48,475 nt of DNA from an uncultured bacterium (GTDB lineage: Bacteria > CAYJRR01). The stretch is from NCBI GenBank assembly GCA_964372275.1, contig CAYJRR010000017.1, positions 1-48,475 of the forward strand, read 5' to 3'. Shown in pieces: positions 26,093 to 34,044 of this stretch (position 1 is the stretch's first letter; each line of letters begins with the position of its first letter). The notes beneath the pieces are model-generated. The model was not told the DNA's origin and searched no databases. It worked only from the letters and a program-made list of their open reading frames with translations. A program made the translations under genes and the position numbers.

Positions 26093-27172
26093 CTACTTTC
26101 GCACGCGCGCGGCGAAAACGCTGTCGAGGCCCGGACCTTCGAGCGAGCCGCCCGTGACGTAGAGGTGATCTCCCGCGAGGACGAGGTCGTGATTGGTGCG
26201 CCCTTCCGGCAGCGGCTCGGTCTCCGCCCAGGCCCCGAGGCCGCCGTCGGCGCCGGCCGCCGCGACGAAGACGGTCGCCTCCCCCGTCGCGCCGAAGATC
26301 GCCTCGCGTCCACCGACGACGAAAACGTAGCCGTCGACGCCGATCGCCTCGCCGAAGGTGCGCGGCGCCGGAAGCGCCGTCGTCGACCGGTCGGCGCCGA
26401 CGGACCGGTCGGAATCGACCGCGGCGACCGAGACCGATCCCACCACCTCGTTCCCCTCCGAGGCGCCGAGGTATCCGCCGATCACGTAGAGCCGGTTCCC
26501 CTCGAAGGCGAACTGGGCCTGGCCGCGAAATCCGATCGACCAGTCGTCGCTCTGCCAGTCGGCGATCCCGTCCCCGTCGATCTCGCCGAGGAGGGTGACC
26601 GACGACTCGTCCCCTTCGACGATCACCGTATCCATCAGATAGAGCGTTCCGTCCTCGATCCAGGCCTCCGACGAGATCGCGCGCCGATCACCCAGATCGC
26701 CCGCCACCGCGAACGTCGACAGCTCACCGCCGCCGGAGAGCGTCGCCGACCAGACCTTCCCCTCGTCGGCCGCGTCCTCGAACAGACCGTCGACCAGGTA
26801 GAGCGTGCGCCCGTCGGCCGCGGCGTTGCATTCGGTCACCGCGCTCGGGGTTCGCCCGGCGAGCCGCCAGGCTCCCAGCGTCCCGTCCGCCTCGATCGGC
26901 GCGGCGTGCACCTCGTCGCTCGTGATCCACTCGTCACCCTCGCGGTAGTTTCCCCCGACGACGACCAGGAAACCGCCGACCGCGGCGCTGCAATGGTTGG
27001 CGCGCGGGTGCGGCATCGGGGCGACCTCGCGCCAGGCGGTGATCGAACCATCGGCGCGTCCCCGCCCTCCCTCCTCGGCCGCGCACGCTGCCGCGACCGA
27101 GACGAGCGGCGCCGCGGCGAGAAGAAACCTCCTCGAGACACCCTTCCGCGAATCGCGATCTCGACCGTGCAT
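26093..27172 (-). CDS. Kelch-repeat protein, possible Tat lipoprotein
   Basis: SRRFLL twin-Arg motif then AAA-C; kelch blades (MPHPRANH..LVVVGG, LYVIGG, LPAPRTF..VFVVGG, LPEGRTNH..LYVTGG). Confidence 0.85.
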   Translation of the reverse strand: MHGRDRDSRKGVSRRFLLAAAPLVSVAAACAAEEGGRGRADGSITAWREVAPMPHPRANHCSAAVGGFLVVVGGNYREGDEWITSDEVHAAPIEADGTLGAWRLAGRTPSAVTECNAAADGRTLYLVDGLFEDAADEGKVWSATLSGGGELSTFAVAGDLGDRRAISSEAWIEDGTLYLMDTVIVEGDESSVTLLGEIDGDGIADWQSDDWSIGFRGQAQFAFEGNRLYVIGGYLGASEGNEVVGSVSVAAVDSDRSVGADRSTTALPAPRTFGEAIGVDGYVFVVGGREAIFGATGEATVFVAAAGADGGLGAWAETEPLPEGRTNHDLVLAGDHLYVTGGSLEGPGLDSVFAARVRK

Positions 27173-27307
27173 CGTTGCCACCTCCGACCGTTCCCTCGCT
27201 CCCCCAAAAAGGTCGGGGCGCCGCGCCTTCGTGCCCTCCCGCGCACGGGAGGAGCGGCGCGCGCGCCCCGTTCCTGGCGATCGCCCTCCCTCGAGGGCGC
27301 GTCGTCC

Positions 27308-27619
27308 CTACGACAGGTGCTTGGCGACCAGCGCCGTCATCTCGAACATCGAGACCTGCTTCTTGCCGCCGAAGATCGCCTTCAGCTTGTCGTCGGCGTT
27401 GATCTGCCGGCGGTTCTTGGTGTCCTGCAGCTTGTTCTTGCGGATGTAGTCCCAGATCTTGCTGGTGACTTCGGTGCGCGGAATCGGCTTCGCGCCGACG
27501 ATCGCCGCGAGCGACTCCGACGGCTGCATCGGCTTCATGAACGCCGCGTTCGGGGTCCGCTTCGAGGTCTTCTTCGTAGGCTTCGTCGACTTCTTCGCCG
27601 TCTTCTTCTTCGCCGCCAT
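27308..27619 (-). CDS. Stand-alone SWIB/MDM2 domain protein with a Lys-rich N-terminus
   Basis: AFMKPMQPSESLAAIVG..PRTEVTSKIWDYIRKNKLQD..INADDKLKAIFGGKKQVSMFEM. Confidence 0.95.
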   Translation of the reverse strand: MAAKKKTAKKSTKPTKKTSKRTPNAAFMKPMQPSESLAAIVGAKPIPRTEVTSKIWDYIRKNKLQDTKNRRQINADDKLKAIFGGKKQVSMFEMTALVAKHLS

Positions 27620-27765
27620 CGGATGAAACTCCCTGTTCAAGGTTGCGGGCGGGTGAGGCCACTCCCCCGTTACGTTCCGCCCATCGAGCGGTGCGCAGCA
27701 TACGCGCATCGGAGCGAAAGGTGGAAGCCTCCTTCGAGGGAGGCTAGGCTTGACGACCCGACGCG

Positions 27766-28272
27766 ATGCTCCGGATCGTCCTCCTCGCCACGCCTCTCCT
27801 CCTCGCCGCCGAGCCGGTTCCGGCTCCGACCGCGGCCGCGACCGTGGCGACTCCGGGCCCTACGCCCACCCCCTCGTTGCAGCCGATCGAGATCCACTCC
27901 GAGCGGTCGGTCTACGAGGGTTCCGGCGCCGAACGCCGGGCAATCCTGTCGGGGAATGTCGTGGCCCGCCAAGGGGATCTGACGATCCGCGCCACCCAGG
28001 TGGAGGCGATCCTCGCCGGTCCCGACAACCGCATCGAACGGGTCGTCGCGCACGGGGGGATCGGCGTCACCTCCGGCGGCCGACACGCCCGCGCCGACCG
28101 TGTGGAGTTCGACAACGCCCGCCGGACACTGGTCCTGTCCGGGGACCCCAAGCTCTGGGACAGGGACACGCGGGTGGTGGGCGAACGGATCGTGCTCCAC
28201 GTCGACGAGGGAACGCTGGAGTGCTTCCGTTGCCGCCTCGACCTGGACCCCGCCCAGCTCCCGAGCCCTTAG
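27766..28272 (+). CDS. lptA: LptA/OstA family periplasmic protein
   Basis: PIEIHSE, LSGNVVARQGDLTIRA, IERVVAHG, LVLSGDPKLW, GERIV. Confidence 0.85.
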   Translation: MLRIVLLATPLLLAAEPVPAPTAAATVATPGPTPTPSLQPIEIHSERSVYEGSGAERRAILSGNVVARQGDLTIRATQVEAILAGPDNRIERVVAHGGIGVTSGGRHARADRVEFDNARRTLVLSGDPKLWDRDTRVVGERIVLHVDEGTLECFRCRLDLDPAQLPSP

Positions 28273-31055
28273 GCCCGCTTCTTCCTAAATTCTTCGTACC
28301 ACCGCGGGAACCAGCGCTCCACGATCATCCGCGAGAACGGGTCGCGCGGGTTCAACAGTTCGAAGACCGACGTCGCGTTCCGGCGCTCGAAACCGCGGAA
28401 GACCATGCTCCCGGCGTAGCGGAAGATGTGCGATGGGCGATCGGCGTCGACCGGAAGGACGAACACCAGTCGGATCGACGGTCCGTCGAAGGCGAACATC
28501 GCGTGGAACTCGCGGTCGAGCTCCGCCACCGAGATCGTCTTGTCGAGGAAGGCGCGGCGGTCGCGGGTCACGCGCTGGAACGCCCCGAGCGCCTCCTCCG
28601 ACAACGCCACTCCGGCGTTGTAGAGGTCCTGGGTGCCGGTGAGGATGTCGAGGGTGAGCGCGCCGCCGCGCGCCACGGCGTCGGCGAACTCGGCTCGCGC
28701 CTGCTCGCCGATTCCGGCGAAGACGTTGGCCGCGAGGAGCGGGTCCTTGGCGTCGATCGCGTTCCCCAGGTGGGTCGCCAACGAGGGCGGAATCGCCAGG
28801 TTCCATACCTTGTCGACGAAGACGCGGAACGGGTAGGTCAGCGTCGGTACGCCGCTCGTCGCCCTCGCTTCGGCGACGACGGCGTCGAGTCTCCGCTTCA
28901 CTTCGCCGTTGCGGGCGGTGCCGCGCGCCGCCTCGTTGATCTTCTCGGCGATCGCCACCTTCACCGAACCGAACGCCGTCTCCGGCAGGGTCAGCAGCAG
29001 CGCCTGGGAGCCGAAGGAGATGAACGCGCCGGCGGTCAGGTCGCTCCCCAGCAGGAACTCCTGGCTCTGGGTCAACTCCTCCTTCAGCTTCGCCGCCAGC
29101 TCCTCCAGGCGGAACAGCTCGTTGTCGATCCGGTGCAGGTCCCCCAGAACCCCCGCCCCGGTGTGGAATTCGCCCGACCTCTCCTCCTCCCGGGAGGCGG
29201 CCGATTCGATCGCGGTCCGCTCCTCGACCAGCGAACGCCGTCTCTCCTCCAGCTTCTTGTTCTCCTCGAGGAACTTCGCCCGGAGCCGCTCCAGCTCCCC
29301 CTTCACCACCGACTCCGGCATCCGCGCCCGCAGCTTCTCCCGGTAGCGGTTCAACATCTCCTGCGCCGCGTCGGCGAAATCGATCAGCGAGATCATCTCC
29401 CCGGAGACGCACAACGCGTCGCCGAGCAGGTTGTTGAGGACGATCGTCTGCGGGCCCCGCTTCTTGATCAGGTCGCCGGCGATGGCGAGCAGCGGCCCGT
29501 AGAACTCCCGCTTCAGGAAGTCGGCCATGTTGACCTCCTTCAGCGAGTGCGTCTTCTTGGTGAAGTCCTTCAGGTCGATGAAGAAGTGGCCCTCCTCGCG
29601 GACGATCTCCTGGCGCAGGATCGGCAGGTCGTCGGCGGCGATCCGGTAGAGGCGTCCCGACTCGTACTCCGCCCGTACCTGGGTGACCGTCCGCTCCTCG
29701 GCACGCCGGTCGACGAGCACCGACGCGGCTCGGTCGACGATCTCCTTCGCCTGGCGGTCGATCTGGTAGACCGCCACCCCCGCCACCGCCTCGCGCAGGA
29801 GCGCCTCCGGCACGACGTCCCGCCCGAACGCCTTGGTCGGCATCCGCTGCAGCAGCTCGGCGCTCCCCAGGTGCTGCGACAGCGCCCCCAGCCGCGCGAC
29901 CAGGCCGGGATCGCCGCGCTCCTGCTGGAACCGCAGCAACAGCTTCCCGCGCGTGGCGCGGCCGAACGCCGTCTCGCGCACCCGCCGCGGATCGTTCATG
30001 AGCGACGCGAGCTCGATCGCCAGGTCGACGCTCGGGGAGACGTCGTGGGCGAGGACCCGGGCGATGTGCATCCGCACGTCGCGGATCCAGGCCGCTTCGA
30101 CCACCGGCGTCAACTGCTTGAGCGCCGTACGCGATGCCGCCACCTCGATCGACGCGTCGAGGTCGTTCCGCACGAGGTCGACGCCGCGCCAGTGCCACAT
30201 CACGTCGGCGAACAGATCCGGGCTGAATCCGTAGGGATTGATCTCCCAGGTGAGCGCGCGGCCGGGATCCCGTACGAAGGTGGCCGGCGAGACGGTGGAA
30301 CGGAGGGCGGTCGGGGTGTGCGGGTGGATGCCCGCGCTCTCCTGGATCACCGGGCTGTCCAGGACGGCGGAAAACGCCTCGTCGAACAACGCGTACATCA
30401 GGAGCGCGACCGCCGGTTCCGCGCGCGCCGCGAACGCCGCGTTGGCGAGCGTCGCCAGCCGCGCCGACCAGATCGGTAGCAGATGCCGGAGCACGGCGAG
30501 CTGGTTCAGGTAGGCCGACGGTTCCTTGCGGTAGAGGTTGTGCTCCTCGACGAGCGACTTGCGGCAGACGCTGCCGAGCTGCGCGGCGAGCGCCGCCCCC
30601 TTTCCGCGCGCGAGCCAATGGCGAACCAACGCCGGGTCGAGCCACGGATCGAGCGCGACCTGGGCCCGCGCGACCTTTTCCGAGAACGGCGCGGCGGCGC
30701 CCGCCGTTCCCGCGGTGAGGGAGTACGACGCGGCGTCGAGGTCGATCGACGCGTAGGCGGGGAGCTGCGAGATGCGTTCGTACTCCTCCGGTTCGAGCCG
30801 GTCGGAATGGCGGATCTGCGCCAACAGCAGCAGCTCGTCGATCGCCTCCTCGACCGCCTTGGTGAAGACCGGCGCCGTCGCGAACGGCACCTTCAGGTTC
30901 TGGAACGACTCGCCGACGGAGAAGCGGAGGCGGTCGAACGGGATCGCCCAGAACCGTTCCGGATCGATCCGCTCCTGGAGGCAGTGCCGCTGGATGGCGC
31001 GATAGGTCCCGTACCGCCGCGCGACGAGCGTCGTCTCCGGAACCGTCGAAGCCAC
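28269..31055 (-). CDS. Large protein with a divergent class III nucleotidyl cyclase-like domain and coiled-coil insert
   Basis: FFIDLKDFT, NLLGDAL, AGAFISFG, INEAAR, VALSEEA and FRGFE appear in class III cyclase order; 928-aa ORF with strong codon bias. Confidence 0.7.
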   Translation of the reverse strand: MASTVPETTLVARRYGTYRAIQRHCLQERIDPERFWAIPFDRLRFSVGESFQNLKVPFATAPVFTKAVEEAIDELLLLAQIRHSDRLEPEEYERISQLPAYASIDLDAASYSLTAGTAGAAAPFSEKVARAQVALDPWLDPALVRHWLARGKGAALAAQLGSVCRKSLVEEHNLYRKEPSAYLNQLAVLRHLLPIWSARLATLANAAFAARAEPAVALLMYALFDEAFSAVLDSPVIQESAGIHPHTPTALRSTVSPATFVRDPGRALTWEINPYGFSPDLFADVMWHWRGVDLVRNDLDASIEVAASRTALKQLTPVVEAAWIRDVRMHIARVLAHDVSPSVDLAIELASLMNDPRRVRETAFGRATRGKLLLRFQQERGDPGLVARLGALSQHLGSAELLQRMPTKAFGRDVVPEALLREAVAGVAVYQIDRQAKEIVDRAASVLVDRRAEERTVTQVRAEYESGRLYRIAADDLPILRQEIVREEGHFFIDLKDFTKKTHSLKEVNMADFLKREFYGPLLAIAGDLIKKRGPQTIVLNNLLGDALCVSGEMISLIDFADAAQEMLNRYREKLRARMPESVVKGELERLRAKFLEENKKLEERRRSLVEERTAIESAASREEERSGEFHTGAGVLGDLHRIDNELFRLEELAAKLKEELTQSQEFLLGSDLTAGAFISFGSQALLLTLPETAFGSVKVAIAEKINEAARGTARNGEVKRRLDAVVAEARATSGVPTLTYPFRVFVDKVWNLAIPPSLATHLGNAIDAKDPLLAANVFAGIGEQARAEFADAVARGGALTLDILTGTQDLYNAGVALSEEALGAFQRVTRDRRAFLDKTISVAELDREFHAMFAFDGPSIRLVFVLPVDADRPSHIFRYAGSMVFRGFERRNATSVFELLNPRDPFSRMIVERWFPRWYEEFRKKRA

Positions 31056-31065
31056 GTCCTGGATT

Positions 31066-33069
31066 CTAATGGATCACGGGGGACGGCGGCGGTTCCTCGC
31101 GACCGAACGTGCCGAGGAACTGATCGAGCGCGCCGACGTCGACCGGCTTGCGGAAGACGGCGTCGACCAGCGCCAGGTTCTGCCGACTCTGCCCGCGGAG
31201 ATCGGCACCGGTGACGATCGCGATCGCCGCCTCGGGCGTGAGGCGGCGGATCTCGCGCGCCACGTCCCAACCGGACCGGTCGGGCATCACCGCGTCGATC
31301 AGCGCCGCGTCGGGCCGGACCGATCCCCACAGCCGGATCGCGCCGTCGCCGGTGTGCGCGGTGCGGACGTCGTACCCTTCCTCGGTCAGCACCTCGGAAA
31401 GCGCGCGCGCGTTCTCCAGGTCGTCGTCGACGACCAGCACGCGGTGGATTCGGCCGGCGGGGGTCGGTCCAGACGCGGCCCCGGAAGCGGGAATCCGCGG
31501 CAGCTCCTCCTCCCGGACCGGGAGCCGCAATTCGCAGCCGATGCCGCGTCCGTCGGGAAGGTTCTCCCACCGGAGCGTTCCCCCCATCCGTTCCACCTGA
31601 TTCCGCCCGACCGAAAGCAGCAGCGCACGGCGCGGATTCGGGTATCGGCCCTTCAGCGGCTCGGCCAGGTTCGCGAGCTCCTCGGGCGAGAACGGCTTCG
31701 CCCCCGCCTCGATGCGGAGCTCGAACCGGTCGTCCCTCCGTCCCCCGGCGACCCGGATCCGCGCGCCCGGATCGACCCGCTCGCAGATTGCGAGCAGGAC
31801 GTTGACGACCAGCTCCGACAGCAGCTCCGTGTCGGCAACGATCGGCGTCGAGCCCTCGAGCTCCCGCTCGATCGACGTTCCGGGTGCGCGCGCGGTGAGT
31901 TCCTGCCTCGCCCGGTCGAGCGCCCGTTCGATCCGCGGCTCCGCCGGACCGACCACGGGACTGTCGGCGGCGCGCCGGATCTCGGAGAGCGCCTGCAGCC
32001 GCTCGACCGTTTCGCGCACCCCGCGCATCGCCGGTTCCAGCGCGTCGACGGCCGCGCCCTCCCGCTTCGCGCGGTCGATCTTCAGCGACAACACGTTCAG
32101 GGCGTTGTTGAGGGCGTGGGCGGCGGTGGCGGCCAGGCTCCCGATCGCCTCCCCCTGCGTCCGTTCCAGGAAGCGCGCCTCCATCTCCCGCAGCTCCTGG
32201 TAGGCGTGGGTCAGCTCGCGCGCGCTTCGCTCCTGCTCCGTGCGGTCGGCGACCGTCTGCAGAACGCCGACCAACGACGTCTCTTCCGCCGGTGGCTCCT
32301 CGCCGGGCGTCGGCTGTCGGCGCAGGAGCGTGGCGCTCATCTCCAGCACCGCTTCGGATCCATCGGGGAGACGGTCGATCGTCATCCGCACGCCACGCAC
32401 ATCGCGCCGCTCCTTCAGCGCCCGCACGTACGGCATCTCCGCCGGCCGGAACGGCGTACCGTCCGGTTTGCGCGCGCGGACAGAGACCAGCACCGATCGG
32501 AGCGCTTCGGCGGCGCGCGTGCCGACCAGCGCCCGCACCGGGACTCCGAGGATGCGGGTGACCGCGGGGGTGGCGAACGAGATCGTCCCGTCGCCGTCGA
32601 CCAGCAGGATCCCGACCTCGACGTTTTCCAGCACCGACTCCATCACCGCCGCCTCGCGGAAGCGGACCTCCTCGCTCGCCAGGCACCGGTCGAACCCGGC
32701 GTGGACGGAGGCGGCCGCTTCGCCGATCAGCTCGGTGATCAGCTCCACCATCTCCGGCTCGAACCGGCCGCTGTGCCGGGCGTAGACGCGGAGGAGCACC
32801 TGCTGGAGCGCCTTCATCTCCCGCGCGACGTCTTCGGACTGGAACCTCTGCCGATAGCGCCACGCGCCGTGGCCGCGCATCGACTCCGGCCAGAGCCAGA
32901 ACGCCTCCTCTCCGCGCTGGTCGAGCAGCCGCGCGAGCTCGTCGACGATGCGCGCCAGCGGCGCGCGCAGATCCCGCCCCGGAAGGTCGAGCTCGCGCAG
33001 TTCGTCGCGCAGCCGCTTCGACCAGAGCCTCGCGATCCGGTCCTTCTCGGCCGCGACGAAATCCGCCAT
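31066..33069 (-). CDS. Hybrid sensor protein: RsbRD_N/globin-like + PAS + HisKA + degenerate HATPase + REC
   Basis: HGAWRYRQRF sensor helix, VLENVEVGILLVDGDG PAS, AHALNNAL H-box, REC VLVVDDD/LIDAVMPD/VTG/RKPVD. Start ATG 33069; the longer ORF-track start lies inside a repeat. Confidence 0.88.
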   Translation of the reverse strand: MADFVAAEKDRIARLWSKRLRDELRELDLPGRDLRAPLARIVDELARLLDQRGEEAFWLWPESMRGHGAWRYRQRFQSEDVAREMKALQQVLLRVYARHSGRFEPEMVELITELIGEAAASVHAGFDRCLASEEVRFREAAVMESVLENVEVGILLVDGDGTISFATPAVTRILGVPVRALVGTRAAEALRSVLVSVRARKPDGTPFRPAEMPYVRALKERRDVRGVRMTIDRLPDGSEAVLEMSATLLRRQPTPGEEPPAEETSLVGVLQTVADRTEQERSARELTHAYQELREMEARFLERTQGEAIGSLAATAAHALNNALNVLSLKIDRAKREGAAVDALEPAMRGVRETVERLQALSEIRRAADSPVVGPAEPRIERALDRARQELTARAPGTSIERELEGSTPIVADTELLSELVVNVLLAICERVDPGARIRVAGGRRDDRFELRIEAGAKPFSPEELANLAEPLKGRYPNPRRALLLSVGRNQVERMGGTLRWENLPDGRGIGCELRLPVREEELPRIPASGAASGPTPAGRIHRVLVVDDDLENARALSEVLTEEGYDVRTAHTGDGAIRLWGSVRPDAALIDAVMPDRSGWDVAREIRRLTPEAAIAIVTGADLRGQSRQNLALVDAVFRKPVDVGALDQFLGTFGREEPPPSPVIH

Positions 33070-33164
33070 CTGGGCTATCAGTTCGTTGCGGGCTGGACGC
33101 AAAGGAAACACCGGGTACCGATGCGCATCGGCCCTGAGGACGCCAGGCCGGACAAGGGGGGCTT

Positions 33165-33262
33165 GAGAATCGAGAATTGGAAACTGGAAATTGGAAATTG
33201 AAAACCGACAACGAAGGGCGGTCGCCAATCGTCGGTTTTCAATTTCCAATTTTTCATTTCGA
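33165..33262. repeat. AT-rich heptamer tandem repeat forming a long palindrome
   Basis: Six heptamers GAGAATC GAGAATT GGAAACT GGAAATT GGAAATT GAAAACC (33165-33206); perfect 22-bp inverted repeat at 33188-33209 / 33231-33252. Confidence 0.9.
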
Positions 33263-33309
33263 ATCCCTTCTCCTTGCTACGCAGCGCCGCCGGAGCAGGC
33301 GATACTCTG

Positions 33310-34044
33310 GTGCCGCTCGAGACGAAGCCACGCACCCCGGCCGAGGCGGCGCCGCTCTCGGCGCCGGTCCTGGTGCAGCTGTTTCGCGGCGAGCTGGCCC
33401 GGTCCGATACCTGGCGGATGCGCCTCGACACCACCACCAACTGGTCGCTGACGACGACCGCGGCCGTGCTCTCTCTGGGTTTTGCCAGCCCCACCGTTCC
33501 GCACACCATTCTCCTGATCGGCGTATGGATGGTCTTCTCGTTCCTTCTGATCGAAGCGCGTCGCTACCGCTACTACGACCTCTGGAACCGCCGGGTCCGG
33601 CTGATGGAGGACGGCTATTGGGCGCCGTTGTTGCGCGCGGAGCCGATCGACGCCGACGCGCTGTCGGAGCTGGCTCACGAGATGAGCCGCCCCCGGATCC
33701 GCCTCTCCCTGTTCAGCGCGATGGCGTTGCGCTTGAACCGCGCCTACGGACCGATCCTGCTGGTTCTGCTCGGCGGCTGGTTCGTGAAGGTGAACGGCCA
33801 CCCGGTACCGGCCGCCTCCTTCCGCGAAGTACTGCTTCGCGCCCACGTCGGACCGATCGGCGGCACCTGGGTCATGGCGTTCATGGCGCTGTCTACGGTC
33901 GGATTCCTCCTCCTGTTCGCGTCCGCGATGATCGCTCGCCCACCGCTCGGCGAGATCCAGGTCGGCCGCACGGCGCGCCGCTCGTTCTGGGAGGCGATCC
34001 TCCGTCCCTACGGCGCTCCGGCCGTCCTCCGCAGCCGGCGTTAG
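33310..34044 (+). CDS. DUF2270 family integral membrane protein
   Basis: LFRGELARSDTWRMRLDTTTNW, IEARRYRYYDLW..RVRLME, RLNRAYG. Confidence 0.9.
   Translation: MPLETKPRTPAEAAPLSAPVLVQLFRGELARSDTWRMRLDTTTNWSLTTTAAVLSLGFASPTVPHTILLIGVWMVFSFLLIEARRYRYYDLWNRRVRLMEDGYWAPLLRAEPIDADALSELAHEMSRPRIRLSLFSAMALRLNRAYGPILLVLLGGWFVKVNGHPVPAASFREVLLRAHVGPIGGTWVMAFMALSTVGFLLLFASAMIARPPLGEIQVGRTARRSFWEAILRPYGAPAVLRSRR

Follow-up and report, generated by a model that had tools for sequence, protein, structure and literature searches.

The window analysed in this study, a stretch of 48,475 nucleotides (nt) of contig CAYJRR010000017.1 from an uncultured bacterium (assembly GCA_964372275.1), carries on its minus strand, at 28269..31055, a gene for a protein of 928 residues (P0001), which is probably an active, cytosolic, dimeric class III-type nucleotidyl cyclase of a new subfamily. 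The modeled C-terminal half of the protein superposed best on known class III cyclases, and the two metal-binding Asp residues and the Asn/Arg pair of these enzymes were kept among its homologs. The family to which it belongs forms, within the class III cyclases, a Pfam-dark, phylum-wide new subfamily marked by an altered base pocket, two inserts inside the domain and an unrecognized N-terminal domain.

Fold and catalytic residues of the C-terminal half

The open reading frame (ORF) begins with GTG and closes with a stop codon at 28269-28271. The guanine plus cytosine (GC) content of its three codon positions was 0.69, 0.45 and 0.94, a signature that marks a genuine gene in a host genome of 70% GC, and together with 202 homologous clusters it supported the coding of 28269-31055. 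Moreover, the starts of the homologs coincided with the target start in the family alignment. No membrane helix was predicted, and the cytosolic placement follows from the observation that no 19-residue window exceeded a Kyte-Doolittle value of 1.55. An earlier note, made from the letters of this stretch, had described a divergent cyclase-like protein here, and translation bore out its coordinates and motifs, namely FIDLKDFT (residues 492-499, nt 29559-29582), GD (residues 545-546, nt 29418-29423), INEAAR (residues 706-711, nt 28923-28940), ALSEE (residues 817-821) and FRGFE (residues 886-890).

The AlphaFold2 model of residues 430-928, built with a 106-row alignment, reached a mean predicted local distance difference test score (pLDDT) of 93.9 and a predicted template modeling score (pTM) of 0.88. 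A VIA-align search with this model against 48,161 representative chains placed CyaB of P. aeruginosa (3r5g_B) at the top, with Z 16.0 and a root mean square deviation (rmsd) of 2.7 A over 177 of 196 residues, followed by Cya2 of Synechocystis (2w01; Z 15.2), a eukaryotic guanylate cyclase (15.1), Rv1900c of M. tuberculosis (1ybt; 14.8) and CyaC of S. platensis (1wc1; 14.8), and further by cyclases of trypanosomes and mammals and by three Pycsar cyclases (Z 12.1-13.0). All of rows 1-24 were class III cyclase-type chains; the next rows, from row 25 and Z 10.3 downward, were generic helical hairpins that covered only model residues 150-245, and the first insert resembled nothing but such hairpins. 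Foldseek agreed, returning 15 matches at E <= 0.001 (best E 1.7e-4), with adenylyl or guanylyl cyclases in all the listed rows. The cyclase fold expected by the earlier note was thus recovered in the model, in which residues 484 to about 905 are a class III nucleotidyl-cyclase homology domain. Compared with the four PF00211 cyclases CyaB, Cya2, CyaC and Rv1900c (Z 14.8-16.0, rmsd 2.6-3.1 A, 164-180 aligned residues), the target has the same fold, the metal-binding Asp pair, an acidic residue (Asp/Glu) before the Asn, the Asn-x3-Arg helix and a predicted homodimer; unlike them, it lacks a PF00211 match, contains an 89-residue hairpin and a module of about 87 residues inside the core, and has an N-terminal partner domain without a recognized relative.

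In the model, the cyclase core falls into three parts. The first (residues 484-580, 29316..29606) follows the order beta1-alpha1-alpha2-beta2-beta3-alpha3 and holds D494 (nt 29574-29576), N542 (nt 29430-29432) and D546 (nt 29418-29420). The second (residues 670-716, 28908..29048) comprises the beta4-beta5 arm, a strand at 696-702 and a helix at 704-711, with V700 (nt 28956-28958), E704, N707 (nt 28935-28937), R711 (nt 28923-28925) and R715. The third, together with two C-terminal helices (residues 804-928, 28272..28646), includes strands with N813 and S819 and the F-[KR]-G-F-E loop at residues 886-890, in which R887 is encoded by nt 28395-28397.

Residue equivalences were read against 12 PF00211 domains from the same genome (alignment A3), and conservation was counted in the 106-row family alignment, whose members share 22-53% identity with the query. 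The hhalign comparison of the whole family alignment with the 12 canonical domains gave E 2.1e-4 (probability 46%), that of residues 469-579 gave E 2.1e-5 (76.9%, 87 columns), and the core freed of insert columns gave E 3.5e-6 in global mode (164 columns) and 9.7e-6 in local mode (151 columns, 83%). D494 and D546 aligned with the two invariant Asp columns and G545 with the invariant Gly, while in the core alignment E704 matched the Asp of GDxVN, and N707 and R711 matched the invariant Asn and Arg, as these two also did in a separate local alignment. The metal-binding pair and the N-x3-R helix that had been proposed from the letters were therefore both aligned to canonical invariant columns and conserved in the family, with D494 in 92/92, D546 in 93/98, N707 in 98/106 and R711 in 100/106 sequences. 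Likewise, S819 (100/106), K/R887 (99/106) and G888 (100/105) were retained, so that the motifs are not chance resemblances. The VIA superpositions extended to model residues 471-484, which are residues 900-913 of the protein, and with the likeness of the motifs this suggests that K/R887 may be the counterpart of the phosphate-binding Lys in the canonical KG motif. The alignments show the conservation typical of a selected active site, here with a different base pocket, and purifying selection appears to act on the catalytic set D494, D546, N707, R711 and K/R887. Further near-invariant residues were specific to the family: K496 (82/93), E708 (102/106), and G712, R715, N813 and E899 (105/106 each).

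The metal-binding, transition-state and substrate-specifying positions of class III cyclases are described in PMC4215837 and PMC4174876. According to the former, purine specificity depends on two positions: one lies four residues ahead of the second metal-binding Asp and is Lys in adenylyl and Glu in guanylyl cyclases, and the other lies seven residues before the Asn and is Asp/Thr/Ser or Cys/Gly. The target departs from this pair. As the earlier note had argued, an Asn stands at the Lys/Glu position: in the profile-profile alignment, N542 shared its column with the Lys of the 12 canonical domains. Across the family, this position was Asn in 81, Ser in 9, Arg in 2 and another residue in 5 of 97 sequences, so that the whole family has the substitution fixed, in contrast to the canonical domains aligned from the same genome, of which 12/12 retain the Lys. 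The note's second claim, a Val at the Asp/Thr/Cys position, fared less clearly. V700, on the strand leading into the Asn/Arg helix of the model, precedes N707 by seven residues, and it met the canonical Asp/Thr in an ungapped local hhalign alignment (E 0.035, not significant alone); the register and secondary structure thus favored the claim, and position 700 was Val in 94 and Ile in 9 of 106 sequences. The core alignment without insert columns gapped this stretch, for which reason the assignment of V700 as the second specificity residue is probable and tentative.

The Asn/Val pocket alone does not prove a new product, because active cyclases without the canonical residues exist. Rv1900c presumably also has Asn at the Lys position, a point for which text searches of the literature gave no statement. 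PMC4215837 describes the active cyclase Ma1120 with Ala in place of the transition-state Asn, and PMC4886424 describes Rv1900c with His in place of this Asn and with both cyclase activities.

Inserts, predicted dimer and N-terminal domain

The first insert (residues 581-669, 29049..29315) lies between alpha3 and beta4. An interrupting coiled coil of about 85 residues had been proposed, and the model showed an antiparallel helical hairpin of 89 residues with helices at 581-622 and 636-669 and loop blocks of pLDDT 72-76. Its length varies in the family, being much longer in 6 and shorter in 3 of 17 aligned members. The second insert (about 87 residues, 717-803, 28647..28907), which had been estimated at about 95 residues, links the Asn/Arg helix to the following core strand and forms an alpha/beta module of a helix (717-734), a strand (745-753) and two further helices (757-769 and 772-796). 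Within it, P742 was conserved in 96/106 and F743 in 86/106 sequences.

Bacterial class III cyclases are described in PMC4174876 as homodimers with two interfacial active sites. In this study, the homodimer prediction for residues 430-928 scored 0.45 against 0.00 for the best control, passing a mark that was reached by 20/30 proteins solved as same-chain pairs and by 1/23 solved as single chains. Contacts between the runs agreed to at least 54%, and the partner pLDDT was at least 67. The confident symmetric contacts mapped to model residues 289-374, that is, to residues 718-803 of the protein, the second insert, which is plausibly a family-specific dimerization element in the predicted complex.

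About 490 residues had been said to precede the core, and in the model approximately 483 residues precede strand beta1. Residues 1-440 (29736..31055) were modeled as an all-helical domain of 22 helices with pLDDT 94.0 and pTM 0.93. The best fold relative by VIA had Z 7.1 over 93 residues, below the noise level of helical proteins; Foldseek gave a best E of 0.16, and the Atlas gave no usable match. Since the domain was searched only as a single 440-residue model, a new fold is not claimed for it. The near-invariant residues of the N-terminal half were G48, P57, R82, D140, W147, G153, P257, R328 and D433, and the domain is presumed to be a sensor or regulatory module.

Family distribution and genomic context

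The target eluded the standard libraries. At E <= 10, the Pfam search gave only DUF7900 (E 0.42) and nothing significant, with no row for DUF2652 or PF00990 (GGDEF); in NCBIfam the sole row was TIGR03843, whose 12 bits (E 0.088) fell far short of the cut-off of 172, and in PADLOC it was PDC-M15B (E 0.016), an unrelated candidate. Among 177,635 PDB sequences, no cyclase was found by phmmer with the target or by hmmsearch with a 17-sequence family profile, both of which returned only coiled-coil-type noise (E 0.19-9.7). Moreover, none of the 37 close and distant family members tested had a Pfam domain at E <= 0.001. The same genome (4.6 Mb, 94.6% complete) gave 23 PF00211 matches at E <= 0.001, 22 of them over the curated gathering cut-off of 21.9 bits; with 22 canonical domains, it is heavily invested in cyclase signaling.

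Searching 5.8 billion clusters by a word index gave 17 proteins, the query among them, at 26-50% identity; three of these carried names, in each case "hypothetical protein". An exhaustive HMMER search of 1.84 billion representatives returned 202 matches at E <= 0.001, 162 at E <= 1e-10 and 104 at E <= 1e-30. In GTDB, sampled with one genome per species, 228 of 276 pattern-matched stretches encoded a relative of the target. The 80 loci kept from these came from Myxococcales, "Deltaproteobacteria" and Thermodesulfobacteriota assemblies, including the cultured Archangium and Vitiosangium. Furthermore, in the phylum that includes Archangium gephyra, 301 genomes were sampled and 84 had a family match at E <= 1e-10, usually in one copy, and 0 of 40 comparison genomes, which were same-domain kin only, had one. 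These 40 were the nearest among the species genomes compared, in which the organism had no close relative.

It had been forecast that the protein would be annotated as hypothetical, and this held for 15 of 17 listed members in two Archangium/Vitiosangium clusters, which were named hypothetical or uncharacterized; the other two, IMG copies, were already named "class 3 adenylate cyclase", so that at least one pipeline stands at the edge of detecting the similarity. A full-text search of the literature found no earlier description of the family and returned only the paper on DUF2652, which concerns another family. These proteins (Ramakrishnan et al. 2016, PMC4886424) are a precedent, described there as divergent relatives of class III cyclases that standard annotation had overlooked and that were likewise recognized by fold and catalytic residues. 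They are single-domain proteins with a mean of 250 residues from Actinobacteria, Bacteroidetes and Proteobacteria, whereas the target has 928 residues, belongs to a family of Myxococcota-type lineages and has no DUF2652 match.

Upstream of the target and in the same direction lies a gene for a hybrid sensor protein (31066..33249, minus strand), in which Pfam delineated an RsbRD_N-like region, a PAS domain (6.1e-6), a kinase-core-like region and a receiver (Response_reg, 4.1e-16), and whose NCBIfam similarity to EspA/EspC-type hybrid kinases was weak and well under the cut-off. Its stop codon TAG (31066-31068) is separated from the target GTG by 10 nt (31056-31065), and the two genes, seen in this arrangement at one locus only, are probably co-transcribed. 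Because the longer frame of the sensor gene reads through a repeat hairpin, its true start is probably an ATG further in, at 33069. This AT-rich, near-perfect inverted repeat (33168-33262) lies between the sensor gene and a DUF2270 gene (33274-34044) in the 70% GC genome. Its folding energy is -46.5 kcal/mol (z -6.6), a value equaled by 0/200 shuffles, and a 20-nt repeat arm had 45 matches in the genome at <= 3 mismatches, on many contigs and mostly as inverted pairs 40-55 nt apart, against 0 for a reversed-pattern control. The repeat is a dispersed hairpin element resembling repetitive extragenic palindromes or miniature inverted-repeat transposable elements (REP/MITE-like), and it lengthens the ORF call of the sensor gene. 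Downstream, the target converges on a gene for an LptA/OstA-like protein (27766-28272, plus strand), beyond which lie genes for a SWIB/MDM2-domain protein (27308-27709, minus strand, E 4.9e-29) and a Kelch-repeat protein (26093-27181, minus strand). SWIB domains are uncommon in bacteria. Around the target gene, no sigma70 promoter-like site was found, and the 4 terminator-like sites against 3.1 expected were uninformative.

A conserved operon partner was not detected when 8 neighbors from the window were compared by tblastn with the 80 loci, as one had a match (a receiver domain, in L046) and seven had none. The flanking ORFs of these loci, of which 477 of 1750 were picked by a third-position GC heuristic, were clustered and named by Pfam from one representative per cluster, so that the labels rest on single examples. 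No neighbor family was common to more than 20 of the 80 loci, and the recurrent ones were clade-limited and mostly on the opposite strand: a TPR protein (20/80), glutamine synthetase (glnA, 18/80), two PP-loop/ThiI-like genes (17/80 each), a GGDEF protein (16/80) and P-II (14/80). In one Myxococcales clade (a subset of L019-L078; L041:3920-6433, L066:689-1117), glutamine synthetase and P-II genes stand upstream on the opposite strand. In Archangium-type loci, a canonical CHASE2-PF00211 cyclase is encoded within 4 kb of the family member (9/80 loci, for example L079:8847-11306, minus strand).

The same genome also contains a paralog of the target, an ORF of 909 residues with 45% identity (C13:47271-49946, equivalent to L095:13251-15980, plus strand). 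Divergent beside it is a gene for an NtrC-type sigma54 response regulator of 451 residues (L095:11690-13045, minus strand), and this pairing is repeated in the metagenomic locus L096, with 72% identity between the regulators and 52% between the cyclase-like proteins. In the search for close orthologs of the target with their context, a first metagenome scan yielded none and a second only L096; this locus is orthologous to the paralog and not to the target, hence the pairing with the sensor kinase stays a single observation. Sigma54 control of the paralog lineage was considered and rejected: no -24/-12 promoter stood out upstream of either gene, as the best site scored 6/12 in L095 and 4/12 in L096, and the mode for 2000 random windows of 200 nt was 6-7. 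The glutamine synthetase, P-II and NtrC-type neighbors give hints of a link to nitrogen signaling, and because the loci are related they amount to roughly one observation.

Proposed mechanism, alternative explanations and significance

Catalysis, the class of product, the role of the N-terminal domain and the co-transcription are what we infer for this protein. In the proposed mechanism, D494 and D546 would hold two Mg or Mn ions that activate the ribose 3'-OH of a bound nucleoside triphosphate, N707 and R711 would stabilize the transition state, and K/R887 would hold the departing pyrophosphate, the products being a 3',5'-cyclic nucleoside monophosphate (cNMP) and pyrophosphate. The base pocket would present Asn for Lys/Glu and probably Val for Asp/Thr/Cys; because it differs from the pockets of adenylyl and guanylyl cyclases, the nucleotide used cannot be read from the sequence. 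Strong divergence and the interruption by the two inserts would explain why standard models miss the cyclase domain of the C-terminal half. The second insert (717-803) would supply the family-specific dimer contact and the first would project as a hairpin of variable length, while regulatory input would likely come from the helical N-terminal domain and, in this genome, perhaps also from the hybrid sensor kinase encoded in the same direction. If the protein is catalytic, cyclic adenosine monophosphate (cAMP) and/or cyclic guanosine monophosphate (cGMP), formed with relaxed specificity, would be somewhat favored as the product; a pyrimidine or other non-standard cyclic nucleotide is possible and clearly less expected, and some other product of nucleotidyl transfer is improbable.

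Several observations weigh against an active dimeric cyclase. PF00211 gave no row for the target at E <= 10, and the target, on contig C17, is absent from the 23 PF00211 matches of its own genome at E <= 0.001. The profile-profile probabilities were only moderate (46-83%), and the last third of the cyclase domain had no significant profile alignment to the canonical domains. The canonical invariant Lys is lost in the family, and in a minority of known cases the loss of this Lys accompanies a loss or change of function. In the homodimer prediction, confidence attaches to contacts on the second insert and not to the canonical head-to-tail surface, which was neither confirmed nor excluded, so that a facing of D494/D546 by N707/R711 of the partner is putative. 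Since cyclase dimers have already been solved, the homodimer pass could also partly reflect likeness to known complexes. Finally, enzyme activity is a prediction for every member of the family, and 6yii, a class III cyclase-like protein titled only as ATP-binding, was among the structural matches.

In the best of the alternatives, the domain would be a catalytically silent pseudo-cyclase with a sensor or scaffold role, whether or not it binds a nucleotide. The P. aeruginosa protein 6yii ("Class III adenylyl cyclase-like ATP-binding protein") resembles the target in that its cyclase-homology fold lies inside a larger protein, and a silent domain would also agree with the replaced substrate Lys, with the dominance of large inserts and a 440-residue helical domain, and with a canonical dimer surface that was not confidently recovered. 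However, the match to 6yii (Z 9.9, 159 aligned residues) is much weaker than those to active cyclases (Z 14-16), and the family keeps the full catalytic set at frequencies that would be hard to explain without catalysis; a pseudo-cyclase is accordingly considered unlikely. Another form of nucleotidyl transfer, either the formation of a linear or cyclic di- or oligonucleotide, as by GGDEF and Cas10 palms, or the nucleotidylation of a substrate, is somewhat less likely still. In its favor, the fold is shared by the GGDEF protein 3icl (Z 9.1, 120 residues) and by Cmr2/Cas10 4h4k (Z 9.0), the target has an altered base pocket, and the near-invariant K496, E708, R715, N813 and E899 have no canonical counterpart. 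Nevertheless, these matches are far weaker than those to cyclases, the conserved set corresponds in hhalign to the class III cyclase set position by position, and the hairpin turn reads LLGDA, with no GG[DE]EF-type motif and no Pfam GGDEF match, in contrast to diguanylate cyclases.

The earlier note had also invited comparison with Pycsar, in which cyclic cytidine monophosphate (cCMP) or cyclic uridine monophosphate (cUMP) made on infection triggers an effector. The structures of BcPycC (7r65, Z 13.0), EaPycC (8jsf, 12.3) and AnPycC (8jsz, 12.1) were among the matches, and PMC11224242 describes PycC as a divergent class III-type cyclase with non-canonical, clade-specific base-selecting residues; there, the base-selecting R142 of EaPycC lies four residues before the metal-binding D146, which is the position of N542, and Asn recognizes uracil in PycTIR and in some CD-NTases. 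As a type of system, the comparison was not supported. The solved PycC chains have 229-259 residues against 928, adenylyl and guanylyl cyclases match the target structure better, and PycC works with an adjacent TIR or transmembrane effector (PMC11224242), whereas the target has no effector gene beside it in the window, no effector-like family is recurrent at the 80 loci, and the neighbors of the paralog and of L096 include the sigma54 activator and no Pycsar effector-like gene. An anti-phage cyclase of this type is therefore very unlikely, given also that no PADLOC model passes, that the recurrent neighbors (glnA, P-II, PP-loop ATPases, GGDEF and TPR proteins) are housekeeping or signaling genes, and that presence in 84/301 genomes of one phylum, usually in single copy, with synteny at the clade level points to vertical inheritance rather than to a defense island.

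The cAMP and cGMP of bacteria and eukaryotes come chiefly from class III cyclases, whose censuses rest on PF00211-type models. The whole family described here escapes such models (0/37 members with a Pfam match), though it occurs in 84/301 genomes. An active class III-type cyclase that keeps the full catalytic set and has lost the purine-reading Lys would be a concrete candidate for a different nucleotide specificity, and the dimerization insert inside its domain, together with the 440-residue helical domain, could reveal new modes of cyclase regulation. If the product is cAMP or cGMP, the result would be a useful correction of annotation and a wider sequence space for the family; if it is something else, a new signaling pathway in developmentally complex bacteria would emerge. 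A bolder proposal, to which we give rather little credence, is that the protein is a housekeeping, non-defense synthase of cUMP, cCMP or a base-promiscuous mixture, reading its substrate with the Asn/Val pocket, controlled by the helical sensor and providing a second messenger to much of the Myxococcota. If true, such a non-canonical cNMP messenger would represent the first pyrimidine-cNMP signaling pathway outside phage defense.

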